A DNA stretch of 64,000 nucleotides from Myxococcota bacterium (lineage in GTDB: Bacteria > Myxococcota_A > UBA796 > CAJQPC01), in NCBI GenBank assembly GCA_036229005.1, contig JAZAMN010000031.1:192001-256000 (forward strand), read 5' to 3'. A program made the position numbers and the translations under genes. Shown piece by piece: positions 10,186 to 52,275 of the stretch. Each line of letters begins with the position of its first letter. Within the stretch, counting starts at the first letter, position 1. A model generated the notes under the pieces. It did not search any database and was not told the DNA's origin. It saw nothing but the letters and a program-made list of their open reading frames with translations.

Positions 10186-11709
10186 CTACCAGAGGGAGCG
10201 GATCTCGCCCGCCTTTAGAGTCAGCGTCTGCACCGCCTGGCCCGGGAGCTGCACCTCCACCTGATCCCCCGCGTCCAAAGCGAGGTAAACCTCCTGCGCG
10301 CTGGACGAGAAGGAGTTGACCGGCGCCGCCCACTGGGTGCCCCGAGCGGAGCGCACCCGGGTCCCCGGCGGCACCTGCAGCGTGGCCCGCTCCCCGCAGC
10401 CATCCATGGACAGCCACGCCCGCAGGCGGATCTGCTCGGTGCCCACCCAGGACGCGGTCATCAGGTCCGGCAGGCCGTCGCGGTTCCAGTCGCCCGTGAC
10501 CAGCCCGCGGCCCGCCGCTTCGTCGTCGAAGCCCTCCATGGGCACCATCACGCCGTCCTGGTTCCACATCAGGGCGTCCGGCTGCGCCTGGCTCTCGTCC
10601 CAGCGCACGCCGTTGCTGTCCTCGACGTAGGTCTCGAACCAGAAGATCAGGGTGCCGAAGCGCACCGGCGCCTCCGGCCAGCCGTCCAGATCCAGGTCGA
10701 TCAGGGCGGTGCCCCAGCTCGTCTGGCGGTCCTCGCTGGGGGGGACCTCGGCCTTGAGGGCGGCGGTCGCGTCCACGAAGCTGCCGCCGAAGTTGGTGAG
10801 CAGGATGGGGCTGCCGATGTTGGTGACGTAGAGGTCGGGCTGCGCGTTGCCGTCGATGTCCCCGACCCCGATGCCCATGCCGTAGACCGAGAGGTCGGCG
10901 GTGCCGCCGGGGTCCCGGGAGAAGCGCCCGCTGCCGTCGTTGAGCAGCAGCAGGTTGGGGGTCACGTAGGCCCCGAAGTCGCGGCCCAGGTAGAGATCCA
11001 GGTCCCCGTCCCCCTCGGCGTCGAGCACCTGGGCCAGGAAGGTGAGGCCGATGGCGTCTTCCTCCGAGACGGCCTCGGCGTCGGCCACCAGCTCGCCGTT
11101 CTGGTTCTCGAAGTAGAGCGAGAGGATGCCCGGCTCGTTGCCGCTCAGGATGCGCTGCTCTTCGGGCCAGCTCCGGGAGCGGGACAGGAAGAGGTCCAGA
11201 TCCCCGTCCCCGTCGAAGTCCGCGAAGGTGAACCCGTGGCTCTGCTCCTCTTGAGTGCCGGGCAGCTCGGTCCAGGTGTAGCCCCCGGCGCCGTCAGGCC
11301 GGCCGACCAGATCCGAGGCGCCGTCCCAGCGGCCCACAAAGAGCTCGTCGGCGCCGTCTCCGTCCAGGTCCGCGGCCGCGATGGACACCGCCTGGGGGAT
11401 GACCAGCTCCCCGACCGTGAAGCCCCCTTCTCCGCCCATGAGCACGCGGATGTCGCGGTCCGGGTTGGCCGGCGCGATGTCCAGCCAGCCGTCCTGGTCG
11501 ATGTCGAGCACGGCCATGCCCGGCCCCGAGTAGTTGGGGTGGTCCAGGGGGTTGGGGGCGGCCACGCCGCTGTCGCCGTCGAGATCCGTGGCGGTCCAGC
11601 TCCGGGCCTCGTCCAGGCGACCGGCCGGACACTCCGGGGTCGACACCACCACGCTGTCTACAGGGGGGTCGTCCTTGCAGGCCAAGGCCAAGAGCAGAAG
11701 GCTCACCAT
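10186..11709 (-). CDS. CRTAC1/ASPIC-UnbV-like FG-GAP lipoprotein
   Basis: LALAC lipobox, repeated DxDGDGDLD, MGIGVGD, TSWGTALID, GRGLVTGD. Confidence 0.8.
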   Translation of the reverse strand: MVSLLLLALACKDDPPVDSVVVSTPECPAGRLDEARSWTATDLDGDSGVAAPNPLDHPNYSGPGMAVLDIDQDGWLDIAPANPDRDIRVLMGGEGGFTVGELVIPQAVSIAAADLDGDGADELFVGRWDGASDLVGRPDGAGGYTWTELPGTQEEQSHGFTFADFDGDGDLDLFLSRSRSWPEEQRILSGNEPGILSLYFENQNGELVADAEAVSEEDAIGLTFLAQVLDAEGDGDLDLYLGRDFGAYVTPNLLLLNDGSGRFSRDPGGTADLSVYGMGIGVGDIDGNAQPDLYVTNIGSPILLTNFGGSFVDATAALKAEVPPSEDRQTSWGTALIDLDLDGWPEAPVRFGTLIFWFETYVEDSNGVRWDESQAQPDALMWNQDGVMVPMEGFDDEAAGRGLVTGDWNRDGLPDLMTASWVGTEQIRLRAWLSMDGCGERATLQVPPGTRVRSARGTQWAAPVNSFSSSAQEVYLALDAGDQVEVQLPGQAVQTLTLKAGEIRSLW

Positions 11710-13220
11710 GTGGGCTCCAGTCGGCTGCCGCCGGCCACGTTGTCCTGGGTCCAGGTGCTGCCGTCGGGCCAGGTGACGGTCACGCTGACGGTGTCCTCGC
11801 TGGCGGGTCCCAGTCCAAGGAAGACCTGGGAGGCCGAGGTGCTCCAGGTTGAGGCCGGCAGCATCCAGCGGGTGCTGATCCTCTCCCCCTGGACCGCCTG
11901 GACCCGAGCCCCCACGGCGCTGGGGGGGAGGTCGACCAGCACGTGCTGGCACTCGGACTGGGTGTGCCAGGTCTGCACGTACCAGATGCCCGCGCTGACC
12001 AGGTCGGGGTCGCCGTCGCCGTCCAGATCCCCGACCAGCAGGTCCCGGCCCACGCGGTCGTCGGTGAAGCCGGCCTCGGGGGCCTCGACGAAGCCCTGGT
12101 CGGTGGCGAGCATGAAGAGATCCCGCTGGGCGGCGCCGTCCTGGAAGCTGGGGTCCAGATCTTCGGCGTCGCTGCCGTCGCTGCCGGGGGTGAGGGTGCC
12201 AAAGACCATCGCGACGTCATCGCGCCCGTCGCCGCTCAGGTCCACGAACTGGGTGCCCCAGCCGGCCAGGCGGTCCGCGCTGTTGGGGACGGAGGCGCCC
12301 GTAGCCGCGGTGATGTCGACGAAGGCGCCGGTGCCGGTCGCGGAGAAGAGCACGGGCCCGCCCAGGTTGGAGACGTAGAGCTCCGGCAGGCCGTCTCCGG
12401 TAGGGTCCCCGACCGCCACGCCCATGGCATACATGGCGCGGTCGCAGGCGCAGTCGGTGGCGTCGCTGAACTGCCCGCTGCCGTCGTTGAGCAGCAGGCG
12501 GTTGCGGCCGGTGTAGGGGCCGTAGTCGTTGGCGGTGTAGAGGTCGAGGTCGCCGTCCCCGTCCGCGTCCACCCACTGGGCCATGAAGGCGACGTCGTCG
12601 AGCACGTCGGCGGGGATGCGCGCGCTGACGTCCACCATGCTGCCGTCGCCCTGGTTCTCGTAGAGCCGCGAGCCGGTGCCCTGTCCCCCCTCCAGATCGG
12701 AAGGCTGAAGCGCCGTGTTGTAGGCGCTGGTGAACACGTCCAGGTCCCCGTCCCCGTCCATGTCGGCCACGGCGATGGAGAACTCCTCGGCCTCGCTGTC
12801 CCCGAACTCGATGGGCGTGCGACCGTCGGTGAACGCGATCATGTCGGGCGCATTGGGGATGGTCAGCAGCAGGTCGACCACGCCGTCCCCGTCCATGTCT
12901 CCGGTGGCCAGCCCGGTGGCCGGGGGCAGGGTCACGGGGGCCACGGTGAAGGCGCCGCTGCCGTCGTTGACGTAGAGCAGGCCCTCGCCCTCCATGGTGA
13001 CCAGGGCCAGGTCCAGGTCCCCGTCGCCGTCCAGGTCCTCCAGCGCGGCGCCGACGCTGCCGTGGGGAGAGAGGGAGGCGGGCTCGCGCACCGGCTCCAG
13101 GGACTGGGTGGGGGTCAGGGTGGGCGCGGCGCAGGCGGGCCACTGCACCACGGGGGCGCTGTCGCTGTCGGACGGGGTGTCCTTTGAGCAAGCGATCAGC
13201 AGGGCAAGCGCGGGGGTCAA
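11703..13220 (-). CDS. CRTAC1/ASPIC-UnbV-like FG-GAP lipoprotein, tandem paralog
   Basis: LIAC lipobox, DxDGDGDLD repeats, C-terminal AVGARV...FLGLG...VTWPDG. Confidence 0.8.
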   Translation of the reverse strand: MTPALALLIACSKDTPSDSDSAPVVQWPACAAPTLTPTQSLEPVREPASLSPHGSVGAALEDLDGDGDLDLALVTMEGEGLLYVNDGSGAFTVAPVTLPPATGLATGDMDGDGVVDLLLTIPNAPDMIAFTDGRTPIEFGDSEAEEFSIAVADMDGDGDLDVFTSAYNTALQPSDLEGGQGTGSRLYENQGDGSMVDVSARIPADVLDDVAFMAQWVDADGDGDLDLYTANDYGPYTGRNRLLLNDGSGQFSDATDCACDRAMYAMGVAVGDPTGDGLPELYVSNLGGPVLFSATGTGAFVDITAATGASVPNSADRLAGWGTQFVDLSGDGRDDVAMVFGTLTPGSDGSDAEDLDPSFQDGAAQRDLFMLATDQGFVEAPEAGFTDDRVGRDLLVGDLDGDGDPDLVSAGIWYVQTWHTQSECQHVLVDLPPSAVGARVQAVQGERISTRWMLPASTWSTSASQVFLGLGPASEDTVSVTVTWPDGSTWTQDNVAGGSRLEPTW

Positions 13221-13273
13221 GGGACGCCTCCAGGCCCCATTGTCCCGGGCCGGTCAGGGAGTGTCAACGCGAC

Positions 13274-13912
13274 TCAGAGGCCGCCTGCGGGCAGGTCCGC
13301 GTAGGGGTCTGCGGCCAGGCGCGCGGCGTAGTCCAGCAACAGGCGGTCCTGCTCGGGGGCCTGGTCCCGGAGGGCTCGAAGCTGCGCCTGGGTCTGGGGG
13401 CTGGGGTCCAGTCGGGAGAGCTCCAGCGCGGCCAGTGCGCCCAGCGGCCCCTCGAGTTGCGCCTCCATCAGGGCCCTCGCCTGCTCCGAAGGCAGGGTCC
13501 ACGACAGCACGATCAGCGCCTCGGCGGCCCCCGGTCCCCCCGCATCCAGCACCGGTCGGGCGATGGCCGCGCCCCGGTGCCCCTGGCGAATGCACAGCTC
13601 CACCGCGCTCAGGGAGATGCCGGGATCCCCGTCGCCCAGCCGCGCCGCGAGCGCTCGGTCCACCCGGTCGCTCTGGGGGCCCACGTCCGGCGTCAGCGCC
13701 TCTTCGACCTGCTTGTTGTCCAGGCCGGTCTCCATCGACAGCATGAACAGCAGCTCCCCCTCGCGGGGGTTGGGCAGCGCCTCGCTCAGGTCCTCCTGCA
13801 GAGGCGCAGGCTCCACGTGGGGGACGCGCTTGCTGGCCAGCCAATAGAGCGAGAGCAGCGCCCCACCCAGCAGCAGCAGAGGGCCGATGCGGCGGGGGTT
13901 CAGGGCATCCAT
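13274..13912 (-). CDS. Membrane-anchored helical hypothetical protein
   Basis: N-terminal TM, Leu/Ala-rich helices; overlaps the upstream stop. Confidence 0.6.
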   Translation of the reverse strand: MDALNPRRIGPLLLLGGALLSLYWLASKRVPHVEPAPLQEDLSEALPNPREGELLFMLSMETGLDNKQVEEALTPDVGPQSDRVDRALAARLGDGDPGISLSAVELCIRQGHRGAAIARPVLDAGGPGAAEALIVLSWTLPSEQARALMEAQLEGPLGALAALELSRLDPSPQTQAQLRALRDQAPEQDRLLLDYAARLAADPYADLPAGGL

Positions 13913-18146: not shown

Positions 18147-18194
18147 CGCCAGCGCCAGAACGAAATAGGCGGCCCCACAGTTCAGGAGACAGCG

Positions 18195-19604
<1,410 letters not shown>

Positions 19605-21446: not shown

Positions 21447-21473
21447 GCCCAGTGCCCAGGGGTCCAGCGGCCC

Positions 21474-23507
21474 TCAGCGCAGGGTCTGGCCCTCGATGAT
21501 CGCGACCAGCCCGGCGTCGCTGCGGGCTCCCGGGGCCCCCAGCGCCAGATCGGCCAGGTGCATGGGGTCCAGCGCGTCGTCCCAGCCAAGCTGGCCCTCG
21601 GCGAATGCGCTCCCCGTTGCATCATCGCTGCCCGTGAACTGGAAGGCTGCGTCGCCCTGGTCGTAGCTGCCCGCCGGCAGGCCGCCGTGGAAGAGCAGGA
21701 CCTCGGAGGTATCCGGCGCGCCCAGCATCAGCTCCTCGGCGCCGTCACCGTCGCGGTCCTGGAGGAAGAGCAGGGCCGCACCGGTGCCGGACTTGGCCCG
21801 CCCCGAGATCTGCACCTCCGCGTCGGCGGGGGCCATCACCGTGTCCAGGCGGCTGGTGAACACCAGGACCAGCCCCTTGCTGGCCCCGCCGTCGTCCGGG
21901 ATGCCGACCGCCAGATCCTCCCGCCCGTCGCCGTCCCAGTCCCCGGCCGCGAGCGCCCCGATCTCGCCGTCAAAGCCGGAGATAAGGTACGCGTCCGTGT
22001 CCTGGATGGTCCCGGTCCAGGGGTCCGTGAGCAGCAGCGCGTGGGTGCTGCCGTCGGTCGCGGTCATCGCGAGCTCGTCGACGCCGTCCCCGTCGGAGTC
22101 CACGCCCAGGATTGCGGCGCCGACCTCGTCCGCCCAGCTCCCTGCCGCGATCTCCAGGCTGCCCTTGGCGTCCGCGGCGGTCTTGTCCCCGCCGCTGACC
22201 CCGAACAGGAACACGCTGCCCTCTCCCGCCCCCGCGCTGGTGTCCGAGCCCATCAGCCAGAGCTGGGCCTTGCCGGCGTCGATCCAGGCGGCCGCGCTGC
22301 CAAAGCCGCTGGTCGCCCCGGTGTAGGAGGCCTGGATGCCCCCACCTGCCAGGCTCTGGCCGCCGCCCATCCGGTAGATCGCGCCCTCATCGGGGGCGCA
22401 CACCGCCAGCTCGTGGTCCCCGTCCTGATCCGCATCCGCGGAGACCAGACAGGCGCCAAAGCTGCTCGGGCCCGCGATGCGCGCCTCGCTCAGGCTGCCC
22501 GCGCTGGTGATGGGCGCGGCCACCTCGTAGAGCAGGCCCGCAGCCGGGGCCCCGACGGCGAGCTCCAGGGAGCCGTCCCCATCAAAGTCACCGACCGCGA
22601 GGCTCTGTCCAGCCCCCTGGCTCTCCGCCAGGGGCTTGAAGCTGTACGGCGCGTCGGCGCGGCTGGTGGTGCAGCTGTTGGTCACGCCATCGCAGTTGTC
22701 GTCCCAGGACGTGTCGCAGGCCTCAAGCATGCCCGGGTGCACGTAGACGTCGGTCTCGTCGCAGTCGTACTCGGTGTCCAGGGCGCCCACCGGGGCCTCG
22801 CAGGCCAGGATGGGCTCTCCCCCGGCGTAGCGGTCGCCGTCGCTGTCCAGGTAGAAGTCCACCAGGCTCTCGGCGTCCAGGCTGCCGTCGGCCTCGTCCT
22901 CCAGGCCATCACAGTCCTCGTCCCCGCCCCCGCAGACCTCGACGCCATCGGGGTTGGTCAGAGGGTCGCTGTCGTCGCAGTCCCCGGCGGTGACCACGTA
23001 GCCGTCGGGCACCACACAGCTCCCCTCGACCACCGTCTCGGTGTCCACGCCGAAGCCGTCGCCGTCCATGTCCCGGTAGAAGGTGGTGTCGGTGAACTCG
23101 GGGTCGTCGTCGTCGATGCCGCCGTCGCAGTCGTCGTCGACGCCGTTGCATATCTCCAGGGCACCGGGGTTCACGGCGCCATCGGTGTCATCGCAGTCCC
23201 CGGACTCGCTCACGCGGCCGATGGCCTCCTCCGCGCACATGATCTTGCCGGTCTCCGGGTTGCCGTAGCCGTCGCCGTCGCTGTCCAGGTAGAACGCGGG
23301 GCCCTCAATCAGGTCGTCCTCGCCGCCGCTGCAGTCGTCGTCGATGCCGTTGCAGACCTCGATGGCTCCGGGGTGCACCGCGGCGTCGGAGTCATCACAG
23401 TCCGTCCCCCCCCACTGGACCGACGCGTAGCCGTCCCCGTCCAGGTCCCGCCGCGAGGCAGCGTCACCGGGGGTGATGAACACGCAGGCCAGCAGCAGGA
23501 CTACCAC
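21474..23507 (-). CDS. Lipoprotein with MopE-like Cys-rich repeats and an FG-GAP propeller
   Basis: GTG start overlapping the upstream stop gives MVVLLLAC; DCDDSDAAVHPGAIEVCNGIDDDC repeats; GDFDGDG...VGAP. Confidence 0.8.
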   Translation of the reverse strand: MVVLLLACVFITPGDAASRRDLDGDGYASVQWGGTDCDDSDAAVHPGAIEVCNGIDDDCSGGEDDLIEGPAFYLDSDGDGYGNPETGKIMCAEEAIGRVSESGDCDDTDGAVNPGALEICNGVDDDCDGGIDDDDPEFTDTTFYRDMDGDGFGVDTETVVEGSCVVPDGYVVTAGDCDDSDPLTNPDGVEVCGGGDEDCDGLEDEADGSLDAESLVDFYLDSDGDRYAGGEPILACEAPVGALDTEYDCDETDVYVHPGMLEACDTSWDDNCDGVTNSCTTSRADAPYSFKPLAESQGAGQSLAVGDFDGDGSLELAVGAPAAGLLYEVAAPITSAGSLSEARIAGPSSFGACLVSADADQDGDHELAVCAPDEGAIYRMGGGQSLAGGGIQASYTGATSGFGSAAAWIDAGKAQLWLMGSDTSAGAGEGSVFLFGVSGGDKTAADAKGSLEIAAGSWADEVGAAILGVDSDGDGVDELAMTATDGSTHALLLTDPWTGTIQDTDAYLISGFDGEIGALAAGDWDGDGREDLAVGIPDDGGASKGLVLVFTSRLDTVMAPADAEVQISGRAKSGTGAALLFLQDRDGDGAEELMLGAPDTSEVLLFHGGLPAGSYDQGDAAFQFTGSDDATGSAFAEGQLGWDDALDPMHLADLALGAPGARSDAGLVAIIEGQTLR

Positions 23508-24428: not shown

Positions 24429-25373
24429 TCACTCGACCCGCCCGCAGGTGCTGGGCAGCGCCGACAAGTCCCCGTCGAAGGGGGAGGACTCGCCGAACTG
24501 GTGCCCGTTGATCCAGTCGATGACCGACGCCCACTCGGGCTGGGTGATGGTGTGCCCCTGATCGTGATCACAGCGGACCGTCAGGTGTCCGTCGGCGGCC
24601 AGCTCCTGCTCCAGCACGTCGGTCCCCGCGTCAAAGTCCACCAGCGCAAAGCTCGGGCTGGGCCAGGCGTCGTTCTCCCCGCCCGCCCACAGCAGCGCCG
24701 GCATCTGCCAGGCCGGGGTCTCGTAGGCCGCCACGGTCGCATCGCTCAGCAGCGCCACGTCAAAGTTCGCGCCCCCTGACATCTCCACGAACGTGGACAG
24801 GCTGTCCCCGCGCTGACTGGCCACAATGGTCGTGAACAGCGCCCCACCGGAGAACCCCACCGCGCTCAGCCGCGTCATGTCCGGCGCGTGGGCCTGGTGC
24901 ACGCAGCTCCGCAGGTCGTCGAACAGCACCAGATCCGCGTCCGAGGTGCCCTCCACGTCCCACAGGAAGAAGGTCGTGTTGAACTCGGTGCGCGTCATCG
25001 ACTCCGGCAGCAGGATGATCGCGTCGTAGGCGTCCGCGACCGACTGCAGGTCCAGCGCCGAGGCCATGTACTCGGTGGGCTCGGGCGTCTCGCTCTCCCC
25101 CATCAGCCCGTGGAAGAAGAACACCACCTGCGACTCCGCGCTCACCCCCGCCGGGATGAGGGCCGTCACCGTGCGCTCCTGTCCCGAGGAGGAGAAGGTC
25201 GTGGTGCCGCTGGCCGAGAGATCCGGGCAGGCCCCATCGCTCGGCTCCGTCAGCTCGGCCAGGCCCTGGGGCCACACCGCCTCGGACTGCGTATCCGCCG
25301 TGTCATCCGCACCACTCTGGGTATCGTCGAGGTCAACCTGGGCGCCGGTGCAAGCGAACATCAACAGCAGCAT
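24429..25373 (-). CDS. Alpha/beta-hydrolase lipoprotein (PHB depolymerase/esterase-like)
   Basis: MLLLMFAC, FFFHG, GFSGGA nucleophile elbow, HDQGH. Confidence 0.8.
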   Translation of the reverse strand: MLLLMFACTGAQVDLDDTQSGADDTADTQSEAVWPQGLAELTEPSDGACPDLSASGTTTFSSSGQERTVTALIPAGVSAESQVVFFFHGLMGESETPEPTEYMASALDLQSVADAYDAIILLPESMTRTEFNTTFFLWDVEGTSDADLVLFDDLRSCVHQAHAPDMTRLSAVGFSGGALFTTIVASQRGDSLSTFVEMSGGANFDVALLSDATVAAYETPAWQMPALLWAGGENDAWPSPSFALVDFDAGTDVLEQELAADGHLTVRCDHDQGHTITQPEWASVIDWINGHQFGESSPFDGDLSALPSTCGRVE

Positions 25374-25420: not shown

Positions 25421-26386
25421 TCAACGGGGAGGCAGCGACTCCCACTCCTGCAGGCGCATGTCCACCGCCTCCAGCTTCTCCGGCCAGTGCTCCCCCAGCC
25501 CCGCCTCGACGTAGCGCGCCCGGGCCTCGCGCAGCAGCACCAGGGCCTGCTCGGTGTCGCCCTCGGCGGCGGTCAGCTCGGCCAGGTCCTCCAGGGGGTA
25601 GCCCACCCACTCGGCGTTCTGGGGCGTAGGCTCGGCCAGGTAGCGGTCCTGAGCGCGCTCCAGCACGGCCTCCAGGTGAGTGCGCGCTGCCGGCTCCCCC
25701 ACGAGGCGCTCCGCGTGGGCCACAGCCCAGTCCGCGATCAGCAGTCCCAGGGGGTCCTCCAGCTCCGCGCGGTGGTCCCGGGCGATCCGGTAGGCCGTCA
25801 GCGCCTGGTCGGGATCCCCGGCCTCTTCGTGCGCGGCGCCCAGGTTGTTGTAGAGCACCGCGAGCCAGGCCACCGAGCCCGCCGCCTCCGCCGCCGCGAT
25901 GCCCTTCTCGGCCCAGTCGATCTGCTGCTCTCCGGGCGCCACGATGGCCGCGTGGTGCGCCATGTCGATGGCCCGCAGGGGCAGCTCCCGCTCCAGCGCG
26001 TAGACGTAGGCCTCCGAGAAGGTCTGCAGGGCCTGCTCCGGCTCCCCCGCCTCCCGCTGGTAGATGCCCAGCACTCCCTGGGTGCGCGTCCAGCCCAGAG
26101 GCTCGCTCTCGCTGGCCAGGGCCAAGGCCTGATCCAGGTAGGGCTGACCGGCCTCCAGGCCCCCGGCGGTCAGGGAGTGGCAGCGAGCCGTCTGGGCCAG
26201 CGCCTCCACCTTGACCTGGTCGGGGAGGTCTTCGTCCGCCACGAGGGCCTCGTACTGCACCAACGCGCCCGAGTAGTCCCGGGACGAGAAGGTCTCATCG
26301 GCGCTGGCGAGGCGCTCCTGGGGCGTGGGGGGGACCGGGATGATCAGACCCGGGCGGGTCGCGCAGGCGAGCAGGGTGAACAGCAT
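25421..26386 (-). CDS. TPR-repeat lipoprotein
   Basis: MLFTLLAC; TPR-like LYNNLGAAHEEAGDPDQALTAY. Confidence 0.75.
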   Translation of the reverse strand: MLFTLLACATRPGLIIPVPPTPQERLASADETFSSRDYSGALVQYEALVADEDLPDQVKVEALAQTARCHSLTAGGLEAGQPYLDQALALASESEPLGWTRTQGVLGIYQREAGEPEQALQTFSEAYVYALERELPLRAIDMAHHAAIVAPGEQQIDWAEKGIAAAEAAGSVAWLAVLYNNLGAAHEEAGDPDQALTAYRIARDHRAELEDPLGLLIADWAVAHAERLVGEPAARTHLEAVLERAQDRYLAEPTPQNAEWVGYPLEDLAELTAAEGDTEQALVLLREARARYVEAGLGEHWPEKLEAVDMRLQEWESLPPR

Positions 26387-28039: not shown

Positions 28040-29290
28040 CTAGGCTTGGGTGTCGTCGTGGGAGATTGCGGCGCGGCTGCGAAGGAACACATCTGCTTCT
28101 TTGAGTTCAACGACAATGGGCTCCAGCTCTACCCCGGCCAATACCGACGCATTGTGCACAATGAGCGCGTCCCCAGTGGGCGGAATCTGAAGGACGAGGC
28201 CCGCACCGAAGGGGCTGCATTGCAGATCACCTCCGGTTTCGCTGAGCCGCACCTCGCTGTCTCCCCTGGTCAGGAATGTCCCGCTGCTTGTAGTCCAGGC
28301 GATCGTGTCCTCAAGCAGGCAGAGCGAATCCGGAGCTCCTGAGAGAGGAACCTCTTGGGATGGCGTCTCACCGTGGAGGATCTCCGACTCGGTGTGGATT
28401 GACACCACATTCCCTTCTGCTACCCCGAGGTGGGGGTTGCGTCCGTCGAAGAGCCCCACTCCCCCAACGCCTGCGCGGCCGGTCACTGGTATCCCCTCGG
28501 GTCCCAAGTCGGGGTCGAGGCAGACCACATGGTCAAGATGCCCGCAGAGGGTCTCTCCCACTACATAGACCGGCCCCTCCTTCATGTTCGCGTCGCACGC
28601 CCATTCGGTTGGATTCAGCAGTCCCACTCCATCAGCGTCAAAGAGACACATCCCTTCCCCCTCACGCTTCCCGAAGGCGACAACCTCATCCGCTGCCACT
28701 AGTTCGACCAACATCGCAAAGTGCTCCGGGAAGGCCTCGACCCTCATTGTGAGGTCCGTCCCAACAAGCCGATAGGCGGCGTGCTCCACCACCAGAAGTT
28801 CACCAAGCCCCTCCCCCCACGCAATCCCCTGAACTGGATCAGTAGGCACTGTGGCAGCCTCGGAGAGCGGGTCCCAACAAGAGCCAGCCGAGCCATCACA
28901 GTCATCGTCCAGCCCATTCCCGCAGACCTCCTCCTGCCCGGGCCTGACCTGCGGCCTTGAATCGTCACAGTCCCCTCCCTGATCCGTGTAGCCATCAGGC
29001 TCACTGCAGGCCCCCAGGGTCTCCGAGTCGTCCCCAAAGCCGTCACTGTCACCGTCCAGGAACCAGATCGGAGCATCGGGCACGCCCTCGTCAACCACCC
29101 CGTCGCAGTCGTTGTCCAGACCGTCGCAGAGCTCCTCGAAGCCAGCCCCTACCAAGGGGTCGCTGTCATCGCAGTCCTGCCCCTCATAGAGCGCTGCAGC
29201 CTGTCCATCGTCGTCCCCATCCTGCGCGTCCAAGAGCAGCGACCGGTACTCGGCCGGAGTGGTCAGGCAGGCCACCAGAAAGAAAAGCAT
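28040..29290 (-). CDS. Lipoprotein with MopE-like repeats and a divergent C-terminal domain
   Basis: MLFFLVAC with GGAGGAGG SD, two Cys-rich repeats, more AT-rich 3' part. Confidence 0.75.
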   Translation of the reverse strand: MLFFLVACLTTPAEYRSLLLDAQDGDDDGQAAALYEGQDCDDSDPLVGAGFEELCDGLDNDCDGVVDEGVPDAPIWFLDGDSDGFGDDSETLGACSEPDGYTDQGGDCDDSRPQVRPGQEEVCGNGLDDDCDGSAGSCWDPLSEAATVPTDPVQGIAWGEGLGELLVVEHAAYRLVGTDLTMRVEAFPEHFAMLVELVAADEVVAFGKREGEGMCLFDADGVGLLNPTEWACDANMKEGPVYVVGETLCGHLDHVVCLDPDLGPEGIPVTGRAGVGGVGLFDGRNPHLGVAEGNVVSIHTESEILHGETPSQEVPLSGAPDSLCLLEDTIAWTTSSGTFLTRGDSEVRLSETGGDLQCSPFGAGLVLQIPPTGDALIVHNASVLAGVELEPIVVELKEADVFLRSRAAISHDDTQA

Positions 29291-29411: not shown

Positions 29412-31736
29412 ATGCGCTTGTCACTCCTGCTCGCCCTTGCCGCGACGCTCACCGCCTGCAACAAGGACCCGGATCTGGACGAGGACGGCTTCCCCGCCTC
29501 CGTGGACTGCGACGATGAGGACGCCTCCATCCACCCCGACGCGGAAGAGGTCTGCGACGGCATCGACAACAACTGCGATGCCATCACCGACGTCGACGCC
29601 ACGGACGTGGTCACCTGGTACGGCGACTCCGACGGCGACGGCTTCGGCGGCGACGCCATCACCCTCGAGGCCTGCGAGGCCCCCACCGGCTTCCTGGCCG
29701 ACAACAGCGACTGCGACGACAACGACGCCTCCGTGAGCCCTGACGGCTTGGAGATCTGCGACGGCGTCGACAACGACTGCGACGGTCTCACCGACGCCGA
29801 CGACGACAGCGTCGACCTGAGCACCGCGACCGACTGGTACCCCGACGGGGACGGCGACGGCTACGGCGTGGACACTGACGCGGTCCAGTCCTGCAGCGCC
29901 CCCGACAGCTCCTACGTCCTGGAGGGCGGCGACTGCGACGACAGCGACGCAGCCCTGAGCCCCGCCACGGTCTGGTACGCCGACCTGGACAGCGACGGCT
30001 TCGGCGCCACCAACTTCACGACCGTCCAGTGCGAGCAGCCCGACGAGTACGCTGCCGCGTCCGGTGACTGTGACGACTTCAACCCCAACATCAACCCGGA
30101 CGCCCAGGAGGTGTGCGACGGCGGCACCGACAACGACTGCGATGGGTTGACTGACGACGCCGACGATAGCCTCGACCTCACCACCCGGACCTTCTGGTAC
30201 GCCGACACCGACAGCGACGGATACGGCGACAGCGAGGCCACCGGGGCCGAGTACTGCACGGGCCCCAGCGGCACCGCCGACAACAACGAGGACTGCGACG
30301 ACACCCTCGGTGAGGTCAGCCCCGCAGAGACCGAGGTCTGCAACGACGGACTGGATAACGACTGCAGTGGGGATGCCCCTGAGTGTGGTCTGGGCGCCCT
30401 GCTGGCGCGCTCGGACGCCGACGTCGAGTTCTCCGGGACCAACTCGTCCGACTACCTGGGTTACTACTCCGTCGAGCTCAAGGACGTGAACGGCGACGGC
30501 TACGACGACCTGATCACGGGTGCCTACGGCGACGACAGCAACGCCTCCGCGGCGGGCGCGGCCTACGTGTTCTACGGCCCCCTGACCACGGACACCAGCG
30601 CCAGCTCAGCCGACTGGAGCGTCTACGGGTCCAACAGCTCCGACTACCTGGGCCGCCGCGTCAGCAGCGCCGGCGACCTGGACGGGGACGGCTACGACGA
30701 GATCATCGTGGGCGCCTACGGCTCCGATCAGAACGCCAGCAGCGGCGGCTCAGCCTACCTCTACTACGGCGGCGCCACAGCCATCAGCACGACTGTGGGC
30801 GCGAGCTTCCACGGCGAGAACTCCTACGACTACCTCGGCCATGACGTCGCCGGGATGGGAGACCTGGACGGGGATGGCTACGACGACTTCGGCGTAGGCG
30901 GCTACGGCATCGACGAGGCCTCCTCCACCGGCGGCGGCGCCTACCTCTACTTCGGCGTTCCCTCCGGCACGGTGGAGCTCGACAGCGCCGACTACGTCGT
31001 GTACGGCAGCGACGGCGACTACGTCGGCTACGTGAACGGCATGGCGAGCGGCGACTTCGACGGAGACGGCTCCGACGACGCAGTCTTTGGCGGCTACTAC
31101 GGCCTCGCCGACTACGGCAGCGTCGCCGTGATGTACGGCCCCCTCTCCGCCGGCACCACCACCTACACCAACAGCGCCGACGCCCAGTTCAGCGGCAGCG
31201 GCACCTACGACTATTTCGGCCGCTTCGCCCGCGCTGACGACCTCGACGGCGACGGCTACGACGACCTGGTGACCGGAGAGTACTACGGCGCCAACTCGTC
31301 GGGAAGCTCCACTGGAATGGCCTACGCCTTCTTCGGCAGCGCCTCCGGCTGGAGCTCCGCACAGTCCGCGAGCGGCGCGGACGTGACCTTTGAGGGTGAC
31401 GTCGCCTACGACTACTTCGGGCGCTCCTTCACGCTGGCCGACATCAACGGCGATGACGACGTGGACGTCGCGGTCGGCGCTGGTGGGAACGACAACGTCG
31501 CGAGCTCCTCCGGCGCGGTCTACGTCTTCAACGGCCCCTTCACCTCCGGGATGACCCTCGCGGCCGGCACCGCCGACCACACCATCCAGGGCGATTCCAG
31601 CTCCGACTACTGCGGCTACGAGGCCACGGGCGCCGGCGATGCGAACGCCGACGGCACCCCCGATCTGGTCGTGTCCTGCTACGGCGCCAACAGCTTCGCG
31701 GGCAGCCTGAACATCTTCTTCGGCGGCGGGCTCTGA
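29412..31736 (+). CDS. Lipoprotein with MopE-like repeats and an FG-GAP propeller (tandem copy A)
   Basis: LTAC lipobox, DCDD..HPDAEEVCDGIDNNC repeats, GDLDGDGYDEIIVGAY. Confidence 0.88.
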   Translation: MRLSLLLALAATLTACNKDPDLDEDGFPASVDCDDEDASIHPDAEEVCDGIDNNCDAITDVDATDVVTWYGDSDGDGFGGDAITLEACEAPTGFLADNSDCDDNDASVSPDGLEICDGVDNDCDGLTDADDDSVDLSTATDWYPDGDGDGYGVDTDAVQSCSAPDSSYVLEGGDCDDSDAALSPATVWYADLDSDGFGATNFTTVQCEQPDEYAAASGDCDDFNPNINPDAQEVCDGGTDNDCDGLTDDADDSLDLTTRTFWYADTDSDGYGDSEATGAEYCTGPSGTADNNEDCDDTLGEVSPAETEVCNDGLDNDCSGDAPECGLGALLARSDADVEFSGTNSSDYLGYYSVELKDVNGDGYDDLITGAYGDDSNASAAGAAYVFYGPLTTDTSASSADWSVYGSNSSDYLGRRVSSAGDLDGDGYDEIIVGAYGSDQNASSGGSAYLYYGGATAISTTVGASFHGENSYDYLGHDVAGMGDLDGDGYDDFGVGGYGIDEASSTGGGAYLYFGVPSGTVELDSADYVVYGSDGDYVGYVNGMASGDFDGDGSDDAVFGGYYGLADYGSVAVMYGPLSAGTTTYTNSADAQFSGSGTYDYFGRFARADDLDGDGYDDLVTGEYYGANSSGSSTGMAYAFFGSASGWSSAQSASGADVTFEGDVAYDYFGRSFTLADINGDDDVDVAVGAGGNDNVASSSGAVYVFNGPFTSGMTLAAGTADHTIQGDSSSDYCGYEATGAGDANADGTPDLVVSCYGANSFAGSLNIFFGGGL

Positions 31737-31781
31737 CCCGTCTCCCCGCCTCCAAGAACCTTCGCCCTCTCCGGAGCGACC

Positions 31782-34094
<2,313 letters not shown>

Positions 34095-38854: not shown

Positions 38855-39400
38855 ATGACCATCCTGCTCGCCCTCTCCCTCGTCGCCTGCAACAGCAGCG
38901 GCGCCGTCACTCTGGACGACAACAGCCTCACCAACAGCGATGACACCGGGAGCGGCGACGACACCGGCAACGGCGGAGACGACACCGGCAACGGCGGCGA
39001 CGACACCGGCGAGGTCCAGGTCGAGGAGCCCATCGTCTACAGCGGCCGCATCTGGGGGAACGTGCCCGACTGGGACGACTACACCTACTGCGAGGGCGAG
39101 ATCGAGCTCAGCGTGGACCCCGACGGGCAGTTCAGCGCCGAGACCCGCTGCGAGGGCGACTGGGTCGAGCACGACGTCCGCCTGGAGGGCAGAGTCGACG
39201 ACGAGGAGATCAGCGGCGTGGGCACCGTGGTGCTCGAGGGCCGCGAGGGCGAGACCTACGAAGAGGACGGCGAGCTGGAGGGCGACGCCGACGAGGAGGA
39301 GTTCGAGGGCGAGTTCGTGATCGAGGTCCGCATGGGCGGCGGTCCCGGCGGCAGCCGCGAGACCGAGGTCGAGTTCTTCGTCGAGCTCCAGGCCCAGTGA
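38855..39400 (+). CDS. Highly acidic lipoprotein with DDTG repeats
   Basis: LVAC lipobox, DDTG x4, Glu-rich beta domain. Confidence 0.7.
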   Translation: MTILLALSLVACNSSGAVTLDDNSLTNSDDTGSGDDTGNGGDDTGNGGDDTGEVQVEEPIVYSGRIWGNVPDWDDYTYCEGEIELSVDPDGQFSAETRCEGDWVEHDVRLEGRVDDEEISGVGTVVLEGREGETYEEDGELEGDADEEEFEGEFVIEVRMGGGPGGSRETEVEFFVELQAQ

Positions 39401-40782
39401 GCCTGCTGCTGCTCCTGGCCGCCTGCGGCACCCCCGCCGACACCGGAACCTGGGTCGCTCCCGGGTGCGGCGACGGCGTCGTGGATGCCTCCGAGCAGTG
39501 TGACGCGGGCAGCGACAACTCCGACACCACGCCCGACGCCTGCCGAACGGACTGCTCCCTGCCCACCTGCGGGGACGGCGTGGTCGACGCGGACGAGGGC
39601 TGCGAGGACGGCAACACCTGGGGCGCCGACGGCTGCAGCCCGAGCTGCCAGATCGAGGCCCTGCCCGGCGAGTCCGAGCCCAACGACCTGGACAGCCCCG
39701 AGACCTGGGACAGCGCCCGCATCGGCGCCCTCTCCGACGCCAACGACCGCGACTGCTTCGCCGTGGACTCCCTCCAGGACAGCTACCTGAGCGCCCAGGC
39801 CCTGGGACCGGACGGCCTCTGCCCCGAGCTCGTGCTGGAGCTCTACAGCCCCGAGGGCGCCCGCCTGGCCGTCGCCTCCCCCGGTGAGGGCCAGTCGCAG
39901 GAGGCCTGCACGCACCTCGACCCCACCCACGAGCCCGGCGCCCGCTTCCTGCAGGAGGGTGTCTGGACGGTGTGCGTGGCCCCCTGGAGGGAGCAGATCG
40001 TCTCCTCCTACCAGCTCGAGATCCAGCAGGGGGAGGACTCCTGCGCGCTGAAGCTCGATTGGCCCACCGCCGACGACATCGATCAGGACGGACTGATCGG
40101 AGCCTGCGACCCAGACGAGGACGGGGACGGGATCCTCGACACCGACGACAACTGCCCCGAGATCCCCAACAGCGGCGACCCCGCCCCTCTGTTCGTGGAC
40201 AGCAGCGGCTTCATCACCGACTGGCTGGTCCTGGGGCCGCTGGAGCTGGGCGCGAGCACCGACACCTGCCTGCCCACCGGGGACGCGCTCTCGCCAAGCG
40301 ACAGTCAGTCCCGACCTGAGCTGGGGCAGGCGGAGCTGGACCGCATCTGGACCTACCGGGGCGTGGGGTCCACGCTGGACTTCACGCGGCATCTGGGCGA
40401 GATCCCGGCCCCGCCGCGCGAGGCCTATGCCTTTGTCTGGATCAAGAGCGACAGCTCCCACCAGAAGACCCTGTCGGTGGGCGCGGACGACGGCGTTGTG
40501 GCCTGGTTCAACGGAAACCAGGTGCTGAGCGTGAGCACCTGTCAGGGCACCAATGCGGACCAGTTCCAGGCGACCGTGCAGTTCTACGGCGGCTGGAACA
40601 GCCTGCTCTTCAAGGTCTACGACCAGGGCGGCGGCTGGGGGCTCAACGCGCGCTTTCTGGATGAAGGCAGCCCGTCGACCGACCTGGAGCTCAGCTTCGC
40701 CCCCACCACCTGGGCCCCCGACCAGAGCGACCAGGACGGCGACGGCATCGGCGACGTCTGCGACGACACCCCCCAGGGCTGA
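39397..40782 (+). CDS. Lipoprotein with DUF4215-like Cys repeats, a PPC-like domain, TSP3-like repeats and a PA14-like insert
   Basis: LAAC, CGDGVVD.E.CD, ESEPND, DNCP..PN, GADDGVVAWFNG, GWNSLLFKV. Confidence 0.75.
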   Translation: MSLLLLLAACGTPADTGTWVAPGCGDGVVDASEQCDAGSDNSDTTPDACRTDCSLPTCGDGVVDADEGCEDGNTWGADGCSPSCQIEALPGESEPNDLDSPETWDSARIGALSDANDRDCFAVDSLQDSYLSAQALGPDGLCPELVLELYSPEGARLAVASPGEGQSQEACTHLDPTHEPGARFLQEGVWTVCVAPWREQIVSSYQLEIQQGEDSCALKLDWPTADDIDQDGLIGACDPDEDGDGILDTDDNCPEIPNSGDPAPLFVDSSGFITDWLVLGPLELGASTDTCLPTGDALSPSDSQSRPELGQAELDRIWTYRGVGSTLDFTRHLGEIPAPPREAYAFVWIKSDSSHQKTLSVGADDGVVAWFNGNQVLSVSTCQGTNADQFQATVQFYGGWNSLLFKVYDQGGGWGLNARFLDEGSPSTDLELSFAPTTWAPDQSDQDGDGIGDVCDDTPQG

Positions 40783-42325: not shown

Positions 42326-43864
42326 ATGCCCCTCTGGCTCGCCCTGTTCGCCTGCAATGGCGGCGCCCCCGACCCCAGCGACGACACCCAGCCGGTCACC
42401 GATGACAGCGGCGTCACCGACGACAGCGGCGACACCGGACAGGTGCACGGGGCGGTCACCCTGGTGCTCAGCGCCCCCGCCCTGCTGCGCCTCGATGTCG
42501 CCGGGCAGGCCTCCGCGGAGCTCGCCTGCGCGGTGTTCGTGGACGGCGCCCGCACGGCCGACACCCCCACCCTGAGCGTGAGCGGAAACGGCAGCCTGGA
42601 CGGCAACCTGCTCAGCGTCAGCGAGAGCGGCCAGAGCGTCCTGGAGTGCAGCTTCGGCGGCGAGCAGGTCAGCGCCACCGTCGTCACCTCGGGCACTTGG
42701 GTGGACAGTAGCTGGTCGGAGCTCGCCCAGACCTACGCCTCCTCCCTGGACGCCATGGTCCAGCTCAGCGAGGCCCAGTCCCAGGGCGACGAGACCTGGA
42801 GCGCCGCCCTGGAGACCCTGCGCGCAGACCTCGCCCGCATGGAGGCCCAGGCCACCTACAACGACCCCGTGATCTGGAACATCCCCGGCGGCTACCCCGA
42901 CGCCAGCACCGTGGAGTCCGCCGGCTACCCCGCCTCCGAGGACGACGCGGCGGCGATGGCCCAGCTCACTGCGTTGAACACCGCCCTGGATGCCTACGTG
43001 CTCGCCATCGAGGGGCTGGACCTGGACACCGAAGGCGAGGACACCCTGGCCGACGTCGAGCGCGCGCTGGACGACCTGGACGCCGCCGTCGCCGCCTCCC
43101 TGGAGCTGCAGGTCTCCGTCTCCGGCGGTCTGGCCCTGCGCGAGGCCATGAGCGCCCACCTCAACGAGCACCTGCTCCCCGCGATGATGGCCGGCCCCCG
43201 CAAGATCGTCGAGGCCACCAACCCCGGCGTCGCGCCGCCCCCCTTCGCCCTGACCAGCATGCTCGGCCTTAGCAGCATGCTCGGTGTGCGCGGCAAGCTC
43301 ATCGAGAGCTGGTACGGCCCCGCGATCGACTGGATCGCCGGCGCCGTGGACACCCTGGCCAAGGTCAAGCTCATCGACGCGGTGTGGGCCCCCAGCGCCA
43401 CCGGCCCGGAGATCTGGAGCGTCAACTTCGGCAACTACGCCATCTACGAGGGCAACGCGCTCACCATCAACGGCGAGGGCTTCGCCGACCAGGCCGACCT
43501 CAACCAGATCCTCTTCGTCCAGCAGGGCTTCGTCACCGAGGCCCTGGGGCTCTTCGGTGACTGCAAGGACGCCTGGGAGGCCAGCACCGGCGAGTCCGTC
43601 GACTACTTCGACGCGGTCGACAAGATCGACGGCTGCGTGGACAGCCTCGTGGGCGCGCTCACCGACGACCCCAAGGCCAGCATGGGCACCGGCAGCATGG
43701 GCGACGGGCAGGAGTACCTGGGGCTCTACGGCGACCAGTACTTCTCCGTCGGCGTGCCCCCCGTGACCTACTCCGGCGACTGGGTGGACCTGGTCGTGAT
43801 GATCCCCGTGAACCTGGCCACCGGCGAGCGCGGCGAGAGCCACGGAGTGCTGCTGTACCCCTGA
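42326..43864 (+). CDS. Acidic hypothetical lipoprotein
   Basis: MPLWLALFAC, DDSG linker, beta/helical/beta organisation. Confidence 0.7.
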   Translation: MPLWLALFACNGGAPDPSDDTQPVTDDSGVTDDSGDTGQVHGAVTLVLSAPALLRLDVAGQASAELACAVFVDGARTADTPTLSVSGNGSLDGNLLSVSESGQSVLECSFGGEQVSATVVTSGTWVDSSWSELAQTYASSLDAMVQLSEAQSQGDETWSAALETLRADLARMEAQATYNDPVIWNIPGGYPDASTVESAGYPASEDDAAAMAQLTALNTALDAYVLAIEGLDLDTEGEDTLADVERALDDLDAAVAASLELQVSVSGGLALREAMSAHLNEHLLPAMMAGPRKIVEATNPGVAPPPFALTSMLGLSSMLGVRGKLIESWYGPAIDWIAGAVDTLAKVKLIDAVWAPSATGPEIWSVNFGNYAIYEGNALTINGEGFADQADLNQILFVQQGFVTEALGLFGDCKDAWEASTGESVDYFDAVDKIDGCVDSLVGALTDDPKASMGTGSMGDGQEYLGLYGDQYFSVGVPPVTYSGDWVDLVVMIPVNLATGERGESHGVLLYP

Positions 43865-46207: not shown

Positions 46208-46210
46208 CCC

Positions 46211-48148: not shown

Positions 48149-48265
48149 GGGGGGATTCCGCTCCTGCAAGACGCCCCCGCTGAGTCGTGGGGGCTGCCTG
48201 TAATGCGCTGAAACGATGCGCCGAAGGCACATGCAGTACGGTGGCCGGCTGACGAGGAGGGGCCC

Positions 48266-51200: not shown

Positions 51201-51442
51201 ACGCGATCGTCGACCTGCCGAGCTCGCCCGCAGTGACCCTCTTCGAGGCAACCATCATCGCCAAGAAGGCGCTCGAGACCCCCGAGGCCAGGGGCGGCCC
51301 GGGCTGGACGGTCTCCGGGATCGCCAACCTGGACGTCGGCAGCTTCGACATCCTGGAGGCATGGGACCAGCGAGGGCGGAACGTACGCTCGGGCCGCGTG
51401 CCCCTGGAGAACGCACACAACCTCCTGGTGGTGTCCCAATGA
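48266..51442 (+). CDS. 1058-aa membrane protein with a C-terminal divergent phosphodiester-glycosidase-like domain
   Basis: GAGGAGG SD, Pro-rich N-terminus, 3 TMs, C-terminal MDGLVI..FQTHLL..RERR..ANLDVGS. Confidence 0.7.
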   Translation: MSQEPPAGAPISGEPPKSDPEKREAPAGAAPAQPQPTPPEPTPPEPTPPKASPPEQAKPSPLPAPEVKPLSLPRTIKGKWKRDLRLGGELVGKGEVKLTASGISVRGRRSSPFRTAIWGAFWLSWWFSFLASGLAGLMTVIGIANRSQSLEVALTGATCIFPVILIGGLFARWLARRLLEPPVRWTVPWGDVTHLAAGNKDLDLKVLVGGNTWIGRLSPRRSAYVSQTLAGIRAGAVPQGQHARGWHRPALIDKLLLVGVLAGLGAGAWKIEPELRRYLQTADEARSGPLAGIPDPVSDGELLPFQASCPARSGQDQVHNRRAGSTLVIDAKGLQGNLLHLRWQAGSKRIQLVESTPARSTQLAGFFTSEGQLAITLHVPSNNTDAVKALVARGDLEDVRTAWCAGLVTSYDITQTLREQGRVEATRQGDDLNIQVSGVGPQTHALLVTRWLPSSGPDDFQACALPIEGQTLGLLKAYPERDLKGFFDDPKERARVYLVEVAKAPPTSAMVEGGKLQPCAVPHSLQLSGAATAWTATPEVLGSNTVRERARQAANTPPMVPMTTSTTDLVDAISGRYAQVSEELRAVHLSPSQQLELNRGFLDAVPWNPVLESASFSRSLPHLEVLRQRLSGKDPSGEMGELFLLGFAEAFLANVPLQPRDYAARVEVGEAWMKVRAGTLWTLNGRRVRVPDAKTAAIYQLVGRYVLVDVARHLERDISAEGSGEVPREYRALATRLEAHKIRIDPKKSTSTKAVEAWLKGDFEYLANRALKKAGEGLSDQQASVSAAWQASYEIKGTGGDRERRYASLVRNGRQIGWVAQFTGRGNRLHYIPAAQVPPRKDALTRHTGSPLLLATAGSYVTADGVTSGLSVVQGQVQNYLISHQMDGLVILHPSKGLTLLDMEVGGKLPGTQETIQPLRSLADLQVLLSWLEKERASAFQTHLLVAQGGFTIDEATAAPDLRERRLLVEASYKQSPLYAIVDLPSSPAVTLFEATIIAKKALETPEARGGPGWTVSGIANLDVGSFDILEAWDQRGRNVRSGRVPLENAHNLLVVSQ

Positions 51443-52275
51443 CGCTCCTCTCGATCTGGCTCTCCTGTGCGAGCAGTCCGACGGCGCCCCCGCCTGCCCA
51501 AGAGACCAACACGCTCGCCCCGCCGCACCTGCAGGCACCACAAGTCACCAGCACGAACCTTCTCGCAGAGGGGCCCGAACTGGTCTTTTGGGAGGTCGCG
51601 TGGAACACATCGAGCGACCGCGGCGTCGCCTGGGTGATCGAGCTCCCGCGAGCAGTCTCCCTCGACCTCGCCCACTCGGCTGGCGTCGCGCACCTCGAAG
51701 ACGCGCTCGACCTGACGAGCACGAGGGCTGCCATCAACGGCGGCTTCTACCAGGACAACGCAGCGATGGGGCTTGTTCGCCGTGAGGGAGAGACCTTCAC
51801 ACCGCTCTCCCCGCGAGGCGGCAGCGGCGTGCTCTTCCAGGGCCCAACCCCAGCATTGATCACCCATAGGGACGCCTGGTCAGGCCATGGCAGGATCGCG
51901 CTCCAGTCCATCGACCGACTGGTGGACGGCCACTCGAACCTCGTGACGGGGCGCCCGGGAGCTCCCCGAGCGGCTCGCTCCGCCGTCGCCGTCCATCAGG
52001 ACAGCGTCAGGTTCGTTCTCGTCGCCTCCGAGTCCAGCATCCAACAGCGGGAGAACGGCGTCCAACTGCACCAGACCGGCGGCTTCGGCATGACCCTGTG
52101 GGAGTTCGGCGAGTTCCTGGTTGCCCAGGGAGCCACCCAGGCCCTGAACCTGGACGGTGGCATCTCCTCGGGCCTCTGGGTGCAGACTGGCGCCGACGAC
52201 GGCTTCCTGGTCCGAAGCCAGTCCGGCTCCATCAACGCTCTGACGACCCGGAGTCGTGCCAGCCCCCAGCCTTAG
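51439..52275 (+). CDS. Phosphodiester glycosidase (NAGPA-like) family protein
   Basis: AAINGGFY, ARSAVA, GMTLWEF, ALNLDGGISS; ATGA overlap. Confidence 0.8.
   Translation: MTLLSIWLSCASSPTAPPPAQETNTLAPPHLQAPQVTSTNLLAEGPELVFWEVAWNTSSDRGVAWVIELPRAVSLDLAHSAGVAHLEDALDLTSTRAAINGGFYQDNAAMGLVRREGETFTPLSPRGGSGVLFQGPTPALITHRDAWSGHGRIALQSIDRLVDGHSNLVTGRPGAPRAARSAVAVHQDSVRFVLVASESSIQQRENGVQLHQTGGFGMTLWEFGEFLVAQGATQALNLDGGISSGLWVQTGADDGFLVRSQSGSINALTTRSRASPQP

Follow-up and report, generated by a model that had tools for sequence, protein, structure and literature searches.

Predicted lipoproteins with half-length, uncharged leaders in one order of Myxococcota

Lipoprotein-like genes in the window

The window analysed here comprises 64,000 nucleotides of a Myxococcota bacterium (GenBank assembly GCA_036229005.1, contig JAZAMN010000031.1, positions 192,001 to 256,000 of the forward strand) and is one part of a 6.4-Mb genome with 70% G+C that is 94% complete. 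Between positions 10,186 and 52,275 it carries ten genes, named here by the position of their start codons, whose products resemble lipoproteins with extremely short leaders, that is, very few residues before the lipobox cysteine. As described in the initial annotation, this cysteine is residue 8 in four of the proteins (23507, 25373, 26386 and 29290), residue 10 in three (39397, 42326 and 51439), residue 11 in two (11709 and 13220) and residue 12 in one (38855), and none of the ten leaders contains Lys or Arg. These genes, together with the related features and internal controls of the window, are as follows (Cys n, cysteine at residue n; SD, Shine-Dalgarno sequence; SPase, signal peptidase):

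6210..8045, minus strand: uncharged leader of intermediate length (Cys 14), MopE and FG-GAP; absent from the initial annotation's list
10186..11709, minus strand: lipoprotein-like, Cys 11 (Cys 10 from the GTG at 11706); FG-GAP repeats
11703..13220, minus strand: lipoprotein-like, Cys 11; TTG start with GGAGG; FG-GAP and ASPIC/UnbV
21474..23507, minus strand: lipoprotein-like, Cys 8; MopE metal-binding motifs and FG-GAP repeats; 18 further Cys, an even number
24429..25373, minus strand: lipoprotein-like, Cys 8; weak, below-cut-off similarity to the catalytic domain of extracellular polyhydroxyalkanoate depolymerase; SD GGAG at -10
25421..26386, minus strand: TPR lipoprotein-like, Cys 8; start pinned by an in-frame TAG that coincides with a -10 box at -12
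28040..29290, minus strand: lipoprotein-like, Cys 8; MopE motifs; SD GGAGGAGG
29412..34094, plus strand: internal control, two MopE and FG-GAP lipoproteins with normal basic leaders (Cys 16 and Cys 17)
38855..39400, plus strand: lipoprotein-like, Cys 12; low-complexity acidic linker, no family matched
39397..40782, plus strand: lipoprotein-like, Cys 10; myxobacterial Cys-rich repeat (TIGR02232) and TSP3; GTGA overlap with the upstream stop
42326..43864, plus strand: lipoprotein-like, Cys 10; no family matched; SD GAGG
51439..52275, plus strand: lipoprotein-like, Cys 10; NAGPA phosphodiester glycosidase domain; ATGA overlap
52419..53573, plus strand: internal control, normal basic leader, Cys 22
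53592..54656, plus strand: metallo-beta-lactamase-fold protein; uncharged SPase I-type leader of 11-12 residues

The start sites of these genes were checked individually. For five of the ten (26386, 29290, 39397, 13220 and 38855), no ATG, GTG or TTG occurs between the preceding in-frame stop and the assigned start. The upstream in-frame start codons of the other five lie inside the preceding gene (71 codons back for 23507; 17, 24 and 79 for 25373; 81 for 11709; 26 for 51439) or, 11 codons upstream of 42326, would add an acidic non-signal extension; an SD or a 4-nt stop/start overlap accompanies the short start in four of these five. The sole gene of the window with a plausible longer basic leader is 51439, from the ATG 26 codons upstream, 82 nt inside the preceding gene. 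The true start of 11709 may be one codon downstream (GTG at 11706, with a GTGA overlap), which would place the Cys at residue 10.

Most start-site details in the initial annotation held up. The TAG four codons before 26386 is present and in frame, and is best read as providing the TA of a -10 box at -12, so that a leaderless transcript is predicted; the strong SD reported for 29290 is GGAGGAGG, with an in-frame stop 12 codons upstream; and stop/start overlaps are found at 39397 (GTGA) and 51439 (ATGA), whereas the overlap at 23507 spans 7 nt rather than the classical 4 nt. The normal leaders of 29412 (Cys 16), 31782 (Cys 17) and 52419 (Cys 22) were likewise borne out. Two non-lipoprotein leaders had also been called short: that of 53592 is an AxA leader of 11-12 residues, whereas that of 63260 is short but carries Lys2 and hence is not uncharged.

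The MopE and FG-GAP architecture of 23507 is that of the normal-leader genes 29412 and 31782, and an ESM Atlas search with the 26386 protein returned TPR only. The normal-leader genes at 29412-31736 and 31782-34094 are tandem near-duplicates, and at least five more MopE/FG-GAP lipoprotein genes are found in the window; a gene for a CASTOR/POLLUX-like ion channel (8143-10113, minus strand) lies immediately downstream of two FG-GAP lipoprotein genes.

Short leaders across the genome

For the genome as a whole, 5331 complete genes were called using a self-trained hexamer model, with starts chosen from coding score and DNA signals while ignoring the protein sequence. Without any filter, the position of an [AGS]C dipeptide peaks at residues 8-10 (153, 154 and 190 genes), with a lower shoulder at 14-22 and a background of 12-22 genes per position beyond residue 26. 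Application of a hydrophobicity filter yielded 840 lipoprotein-like genes, with the Cys at residues 6-13 in 634, 14-17 in 95 and 18-36 in 111. The 634 short-leader genes, in which Cys positions 8-10 and leaders of 7-9 residues are most frequent, represent about 12% of all genes and about three-quarters of the predicted lipoproteins. This genome-wide tabulation, which the initial annotation had proposed, places short leaders far above the chance expectation, estimated at 10.65 genes (mean of 20 shuffles of the first 40 residues; maximum 17) or about 7.6 (internal Met controls).

Such a distribution could arise as an annotation artefact if the true starts lay upstream at unusual codons and gave leaders of normal length. 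Upstream in-frame start codons do exist for half of the ten window genes and for some of the 634, and a few database entries for CpoB (YbgF), encoded after pal, are evidently truncated. However, in 376 genes the Cys lies at residue 13 or earlier even when counted from the first ATG, GTG or TTG after the upstream in-frame stop, and in 121 of these the stop itself is at most 14 codons from the Cys, so that no start codon of any kind yields a normal leader. The pinned starts also carry initiation signals at the expected places: GGAG/GAGG peaks at -12 to -9 among the 376, and TANNNT at exactly -12 precedes 45 of them, compared with 2 of 5258 internal start-codon controls. An SD, a -10 box or an overlap marks the start in 540 of the 634 short-leader genes, and the start of CpoB overlaps the pal stop. 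Short of mRNA editing or frameshifting, the pinned set leaves no room for the artefact, and we regard it as scarcely credible for the short leaders as a whole.

Apart from leader length, a -10-like box, TAG[AG][CA]T, begins 12-13 nt before the start in about 11% of all genes (596 of 5331 under a permissive criterion), with G-rich bases ahead of it and no -35 consensus, and these genes are likely to be transcribed as leaderless mRNAs. A -10-like box is found at the start of 97 of the 634 short-leader and 8 of the 182 normal-leader genes.

The absence of basic residues depends on leader length. Among start-supported genes examined without the filter, Lys or Arg precedes the Cys in 27 of 574 with [AGS]C at residues 8-12, compared with 137 of 159 at residues 17-20. 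At residues 2-4, which the filter leaves free, Lys or Arg occurs in 5 of 161 leaders with Cys 11-13, 26 of 70 with Cys 14-16, 53 of 68 with Cys 17-19 and 39 of 56 with Cys 20-24; the charge switch thus falls at a leader length of about 15-16 residues. Because 31% of all genes (1634 of 5331) have Lys or Arg at residues 2-4, the 5 of 161 indicates that basic residues are avoided in short leaders, beyond being merely absent. Leu makes up 57% of the short leaders as against 40% of the matching part of long ones. The lipobox, in contrast to the leader, is that of normal lipoproteins, with Leu at -3 in 406 of 634 short-leader and 110 of 182 normal lipoproteins and Ala at -1 in 500 of 634 and 130 of 182, respectively (Ala, Gly or Ser at -1 being required by the filter), and the tether after the Cys is acidic in both groups.

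In comparison with the E. coli Lpp-type Sec/SPase II signal, the proteins share a hydrophobic stretch leading to [LV][ASTVI][GAS]C, an acidic disordered tether followed by a soluble mature domain, extracytoplasmic cargo, and an Lgt/LspA/Lnt/LolA set in which Lgt, LspA and Lnt retain their catalytic motifs; they differ in a leader mode of 7-9 residues, rich in Leu, that lacks both the positively charged n-region and the signal length of about 15-26. In earlier work, lipoprotein signals average 16-26 residues with a positively charged n-region (PMC8689077), signal sequences of E. coli K-12 have a minimum of 15-16 residues (PMC5963308) and 15-30 residues is the typical length (PMC12190922), the labelling rules of SignalP 6 (PMC9287161) being among the sources for these n-region and length features. 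The twin-arginine motif of a Tat/SPase II leader is missing, the short leaders containing no Arg, although TatC is encoded.

The cargo of the short leaders looks extracytoplasmic, judging from the known biology of c-type cytochromes, disulfide pairing, CpoB and an ABC binding protein. Of the 634 proteins, 623 lack a later transmembrane segment. Furthermore, the number of mature Cys residues is even in 430 of 519 short-leader proteins, in contrast to 567 of 967 cytoplasmic-like proteins (P = 2.6e-22) and comparably to 112 of 145 normal lipoproteins (P = 0.15), which makes the Cys at +1 the odd one out. Covalent haem attachment takes place outside the cytoplasm, and 35 of the 83 CXXCH proteins in the genome have a short leader. 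Pfam was run on the 130 short-leader proteins from the 20 densest regions, with matches for 57 and none for 73; the matches include five cytochrome c/peroxidase proteins, SBP_bac_5, an OmpA C-domain and an S41 peptidase, and further sulfatases, glycosidases, FG-GAP, MopE and Ig-like domains. Elsewhere in the genome, two short-leader lipoprotein-like proteins contain Flagellin_N helical domains (G000:C47; L196:8789-9982 and 10030-11217).

Orthologue series, distribution and export machinery

The relation between short and normal leaders was followed in CpoB at 30 loci from the class; the protein scores just under the TIGR02795 cut-off, and close homologues are named YbgF in their source records. 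The source names of CpoB homologues and the myxobacterial Cys-rich repeat mark the lineage as Myxococcota-like. At most of these loci the mature protein starts with one shared Cys-led motif and the gene often overlaps the pal stop, while the leader in front of the motif varies: the Cys is at residue 8-9 in G000 (the present genome), G001, G011 and G007, at 11 in G160, at 14-15 in G024 and G150, and at 17-23 with Lys or Arg in G238, G006, G013, G005, G012, G019, G030, G253 and G022. For the remaining loci, the script picked a wrong Cys in three, no Cys was found in one and the rest have more than one possible start. Among 109 database homologues, whose starts are predictions, the Cys is present in 106 and aligned with the lipobox Cys of canonical leaders, and Lys or Arg occurs in 0 of the 54 leaders with the Cys at residue 11 or earlier compared with 39 of the 45 with the Cys at 14 or later.

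A similar relation is seen between paralogues. A near-full-length lipoprotein paralogue with a normal leader exists in the genome for 41 of the 634 short-leader genes, and tandem paralogue pairs at 71% and 64% identity were found, the 71% pair combining Cys 10 with Cys 15. Cytoplasmic-like proteins include a near-full-length homologue of 13 of the 634, some being mis-called starts and some enzymes that apparently gained a leader. Taken together, the sequences indicate that short leaders are normal lipoprotein signals in shortened form, the n-region having been lost by degrees among orthologues and paralogues. Separately, a glycosidase-like protein, an MsrA and a probable multicopper protein carry short lipobox leaders (G000:C24:154779, C59:15727 and C39:32823); their closest paralogues in the genome are leaderless, which suggests that a short leader is easily gained.

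These comparisons also bear on whether the proteins could be exported but unlipidated, the Cys being there by chance or forming a disulfide and the leader being removed by SPase I or retained. An odd mature Cys count in 89 of 519 short-leader proteins could reflect pairing with the Cys at +1, but normal lipoproteins show the same share of odd counts (33 of 145) and an identical lipobox profile, and the Cys is kept at the canonical lipobox position in nearly all CpoB homologues. We therefore consider unlipidated export very improbable.

The short-leader trait is confined to one order and is patchy within it. A pattern of Met, five hydrophobic residues, Ala and Cys has 56 matches in this genome and 44-90 in three genomes of the genus; among 300 genomes of the phylum, at least 5 matches were found in 14 of 43 from the order (up to 90), while none of the 257 outside it exceeded 4. 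A looser pattern with Cys at 7-11 gave 7-191 matches within the order, compared with 4-64 elsewhere in the class; per Mb, the order ranges from 1.2 to 27.7, and three families are high and others low on a quick SecY tree (FastTree, with several open forks), which suggests repeated shortening within the order. The SecY of a locus titled 'uncultured Enterobacterales bacterium' (L046) is 71% identical to that of this genome and falls inside the clade of the order, the label probably being wrong.

The initial annotation had called for inspection of the export and lipidation proteins for paralogues or divergence. The genome encodes one each of SecY, SecE, SecA, SecD, SecF, YidC, Ffh, FtsY, LolA, TatC and Lnt, together with two deformylases, five S26 peptidase genes, four Lgt and two LspA. 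Catalytic motifs are recognizable in SecYE, SecA, SecDF, YidC, Ffh/FtsY, LolA, Lnt (identified by motif alone), Lgt and LspA, and when three of the Lgt copies were scored against TIGR00544, two reached its cut-off and the third fell below it. One operon (G000:C8:68311-71829; L005, L006 and L001) comprises, in this order, lspA, a gene for a multi-pass membrane protein of 495 aa, lspA and lgt. Myxococcus xanthus is likewise described as having two lspA genes in one operon with lgt (PMC8689077), there as an lspA1-lspA2 tandem, whereas here the membrane protein gene separates them. Across the class, 2-7 Lgt-family genes were counted in all 61 genomes sampled, often as tandem pairs and with the highest numbers outside the order, which is unusual in itself. 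Loss of peptide deformylase was considered and rejected, since the family search found the two genes that a motif search had missed.

It was proposed in the initial annotation that a dedicated route serves the short leaders, and this could be an Lgt or LspA paralogue, or YidC alone, specialized for them. The four Lgt and two LspA genes, the divergence of some Lgt copies (the third of the three scored fails TIGR00544) and the coexistence of normal and short leaders in one genome are in its favour. On the other hand, Lgt expansion is class-wide, reaching seven copies in orders without the trait, and was rejected as a cause because it does not track short leaders; tandem lspA genes with lgt also occur in M. 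xanthus, as noted above; leader length forms a continuum within one orthologue family; and SecY, SecA and YidC are single. A dedicated route is thus unlikely.

SecY positions were assigned by ungapped alignment to E. coli SecY around TM5 (33 of 35 order genomes matched, three were not fetched and 30 were aligned). All 20 genomes from other orders of the class have Ile at position 187, where 18 of the 30 order genomes have Ala and 12 have Ser; position 192 is Thr, Ser, Val or Ala in all 30 and Phe, Met or Leu outside the order. Published work places I187 in the isoleucine ring of SecY and prlA mutations at 69, 191, 278, 282 and 408 (PMC2171872), describes prl mutations as residing mostly in the ring, lateral gate and plug (PMC3164448), and names four inner ring residues whose equivalents are unchanged in this genome (PMC8612361). 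The change from Ile187 to Ala or Ser is a non-conservative substitution in the pore ring. It resembles E. coli prlA and yeast sec61 prl alleles in altering the pore ring of a translocon that would export very short signals (PMC3164448, PMC2171872); unlike them it is natural, fixed across the order, and located at a ring member outside the prlA sites named. The SecY change fits the boundary of the order, not the degree of the trait.

Interpretation and significance

Short leaders are not restricted to lipoproteins. A crude AxA search returned 363 SPase I-like candidates with a mode of 11 residues, of which 165 end at 10-14 and 150 of these lack Lys and Arg; the regular expression uses the first AxA and is thus biased short. 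These candidates share the hydrophobic core and AxA of a canonical Sec/SPase I signal and depart from it in being so short and mostly uncharged. The BamA leader, with 15 uncharged residues, begins immediately after an in-frame stop. Since SPase I-type and lipoprotein leaders are both short, the change is likely to lie in a shared step, Sec targeting or opening, rather than in lipidation.

Taken together, these results favour a canonical route that has become less demanding of its signals. We consider it probable that the short-leader products are true lipoproteins, Sec-exported, lipidated by Lgt and cleaved by LspA, and that the leader, of 6-12 residues, is a normal signal minus the basic n-region and about half of the h-region. 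The proposal of the initial annotation is accordingly divided: that a half-length leader suffices for export is well supported by the orthologue series, the periplasm-only cargo and the paired cysteines, whereas a non-canonical route is not needed, because the canonical machinery is complete, the lipobox is normal, multiple Lgt copies are class-wide and SPase I leaders are short too.

A related possibility is that the proteins are exported and modified by Lgt but keep the leader, uncut by LspA, as an extra hydrophobic anchor. Seven residues may be too short to position in LspA, and as both enzymes read the lipobox, the present evidence cannot separate them. However, short SPase I-type leaders keep the AxA at a matching distance, suggesting selected cleavage, two intact LspA genes are present, and part of the cargo (OmpA C-domain, FG-GAP adhesin-like and MtrC-like multihaem proteins) would presumably have to travel by the Lol route or reach the cell surface. 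Retention of the leader is therefore improbable, and cleavage by LspA is preferred.

Several observations weigh against relaxed use of the canonical route, or limit the numbers behind it. The lipoprotein filter makes the five residues before the lipobox uncharged, so that the low number of short leaders with Lys or Arg (8 of 634) is partly built in, and the home-made gene caller overlooked, among the ten window genes, 29290 at least, so that 634 is a lower bound. Normal leaders are kept here by PilP (Cys 16), a Pal-like protein (Cys 18) and LolA; with core envelope proteins retaining normal leaders, short ones may work less efficiently or take another route. The SecY 187 change also occurs in members of the order with background counts (1-3 per Mb), the remaining ring positions are unchanged, and among the SecY matches listed from named genomes outside the order (mostly Alphaproteobacteria; one named locus without sequence) residue 187 is Ile in 61 of 79, Thr in 11, Ser in 4, Ala in 2 and Val in 1, that is, non-Ile in 18, some unrelated Proteobacteria included. 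An alignment of 20 SecA sequences (12 from the order and 8 from outside) gave nine differences between the two groups, none of them interpretable as an adaptation; the acidic insertion of the E. coli SecA preprotein domain is absent from both. Finally, a small residue 2 in 198 of the 634 short leaders and the two encoded deformylases leave retention of the formyl group, which is considered below, no more than a guess.

Other core lipoproteins were assessed as well. PilP was rejected as an example of a short-leader core lipoprotein, its leader being normal in this genome; among the 30 loci read it is shortened and uncharged (Cys 13-15) in G007, G029 and G025. BamD, LptE and ApbE, the last with a signal anchor, were not usable as lipoprotein controls, and no match to PF04390 (LptE) was found in the 94% complete genome. 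The best BamD match (G000:C7:59545-60351, L007) has an SPase I-like leader and no clear lipobox.

How so short a leader could be processed is suggested by the enzymes. Structural work describes an Lgt cavity about 20 A in depth whose periplasmic half holds the catalytic residues, with no specific reading of the substrate ahead of its lipobox (PMC4728403), and places the aspartates of LspA within the membrane, in line with the short h-regions of lipoproteins (PMC9360617). Given this geometry, a leader of 4-6 hydrophobic residues plus the lipobox could sit in the outer leaflet once the chain has passed through SecY, a step well supported by inference. From there such a leader would fall short of the cytoplasm, leaving the N-terminus buried, a position that would select against Lys and Arg and favour a retained formyl group. 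SRP binding is reported to prevent deformylation (PMC5454389), and very hydrophobic signals to go to SRP (PMC5963308); that the formyl group is kept on these leaders is only a guess. As to the channel, we hypothesize that a looser SecY pore ring lowers the signal strength needed for opening, and a loosened export channel possibly helps the short leaders. The most far-reaching version, that the signal-peptide code has been rewritten in one order, where a naturally prl-like SecY takes formylated, uncharged, non-spanning leaders of 7 residues on hundreds of surface proteins, is a tentative proposal that we hold to be rather doubtful as a whole.

As far as the literature was searched, with few subscription journals or older mutagenesis papers covered, no report of this short, uncharged leader trait was found. 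PROSITE PS51257 requires the Cys at 15-35, and rule-based lipoprotein predictors that look for it at residue 15 or later together with an early Lys or Arg would miss most of the surface proteome of the lineage. Bacterial signal peptides are generally taken to be tripartite, to carry a basic n-region and to need some 15 residues at least, and about 12% of the genes here use half that length. The natural orthologue series, with leaders of 7-22 residues on one mature protein, offers reagents for the roles of n-region and h-region length and for the depth at which Lgt and LspA read their substrates, and the finding bears on whether a prl-like translocon can persist as a stable evolutionary state. 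If a prl-like SecY and formylated 7-residue leaders do operate in this order, they would set the lower limit for Sec signals and for Lgt/LspA substrates, Met-Leu5-Ala-Cys would be a minimal portable lipidation tag, and ordinary enzymes, too, would have been put on the cell surface.

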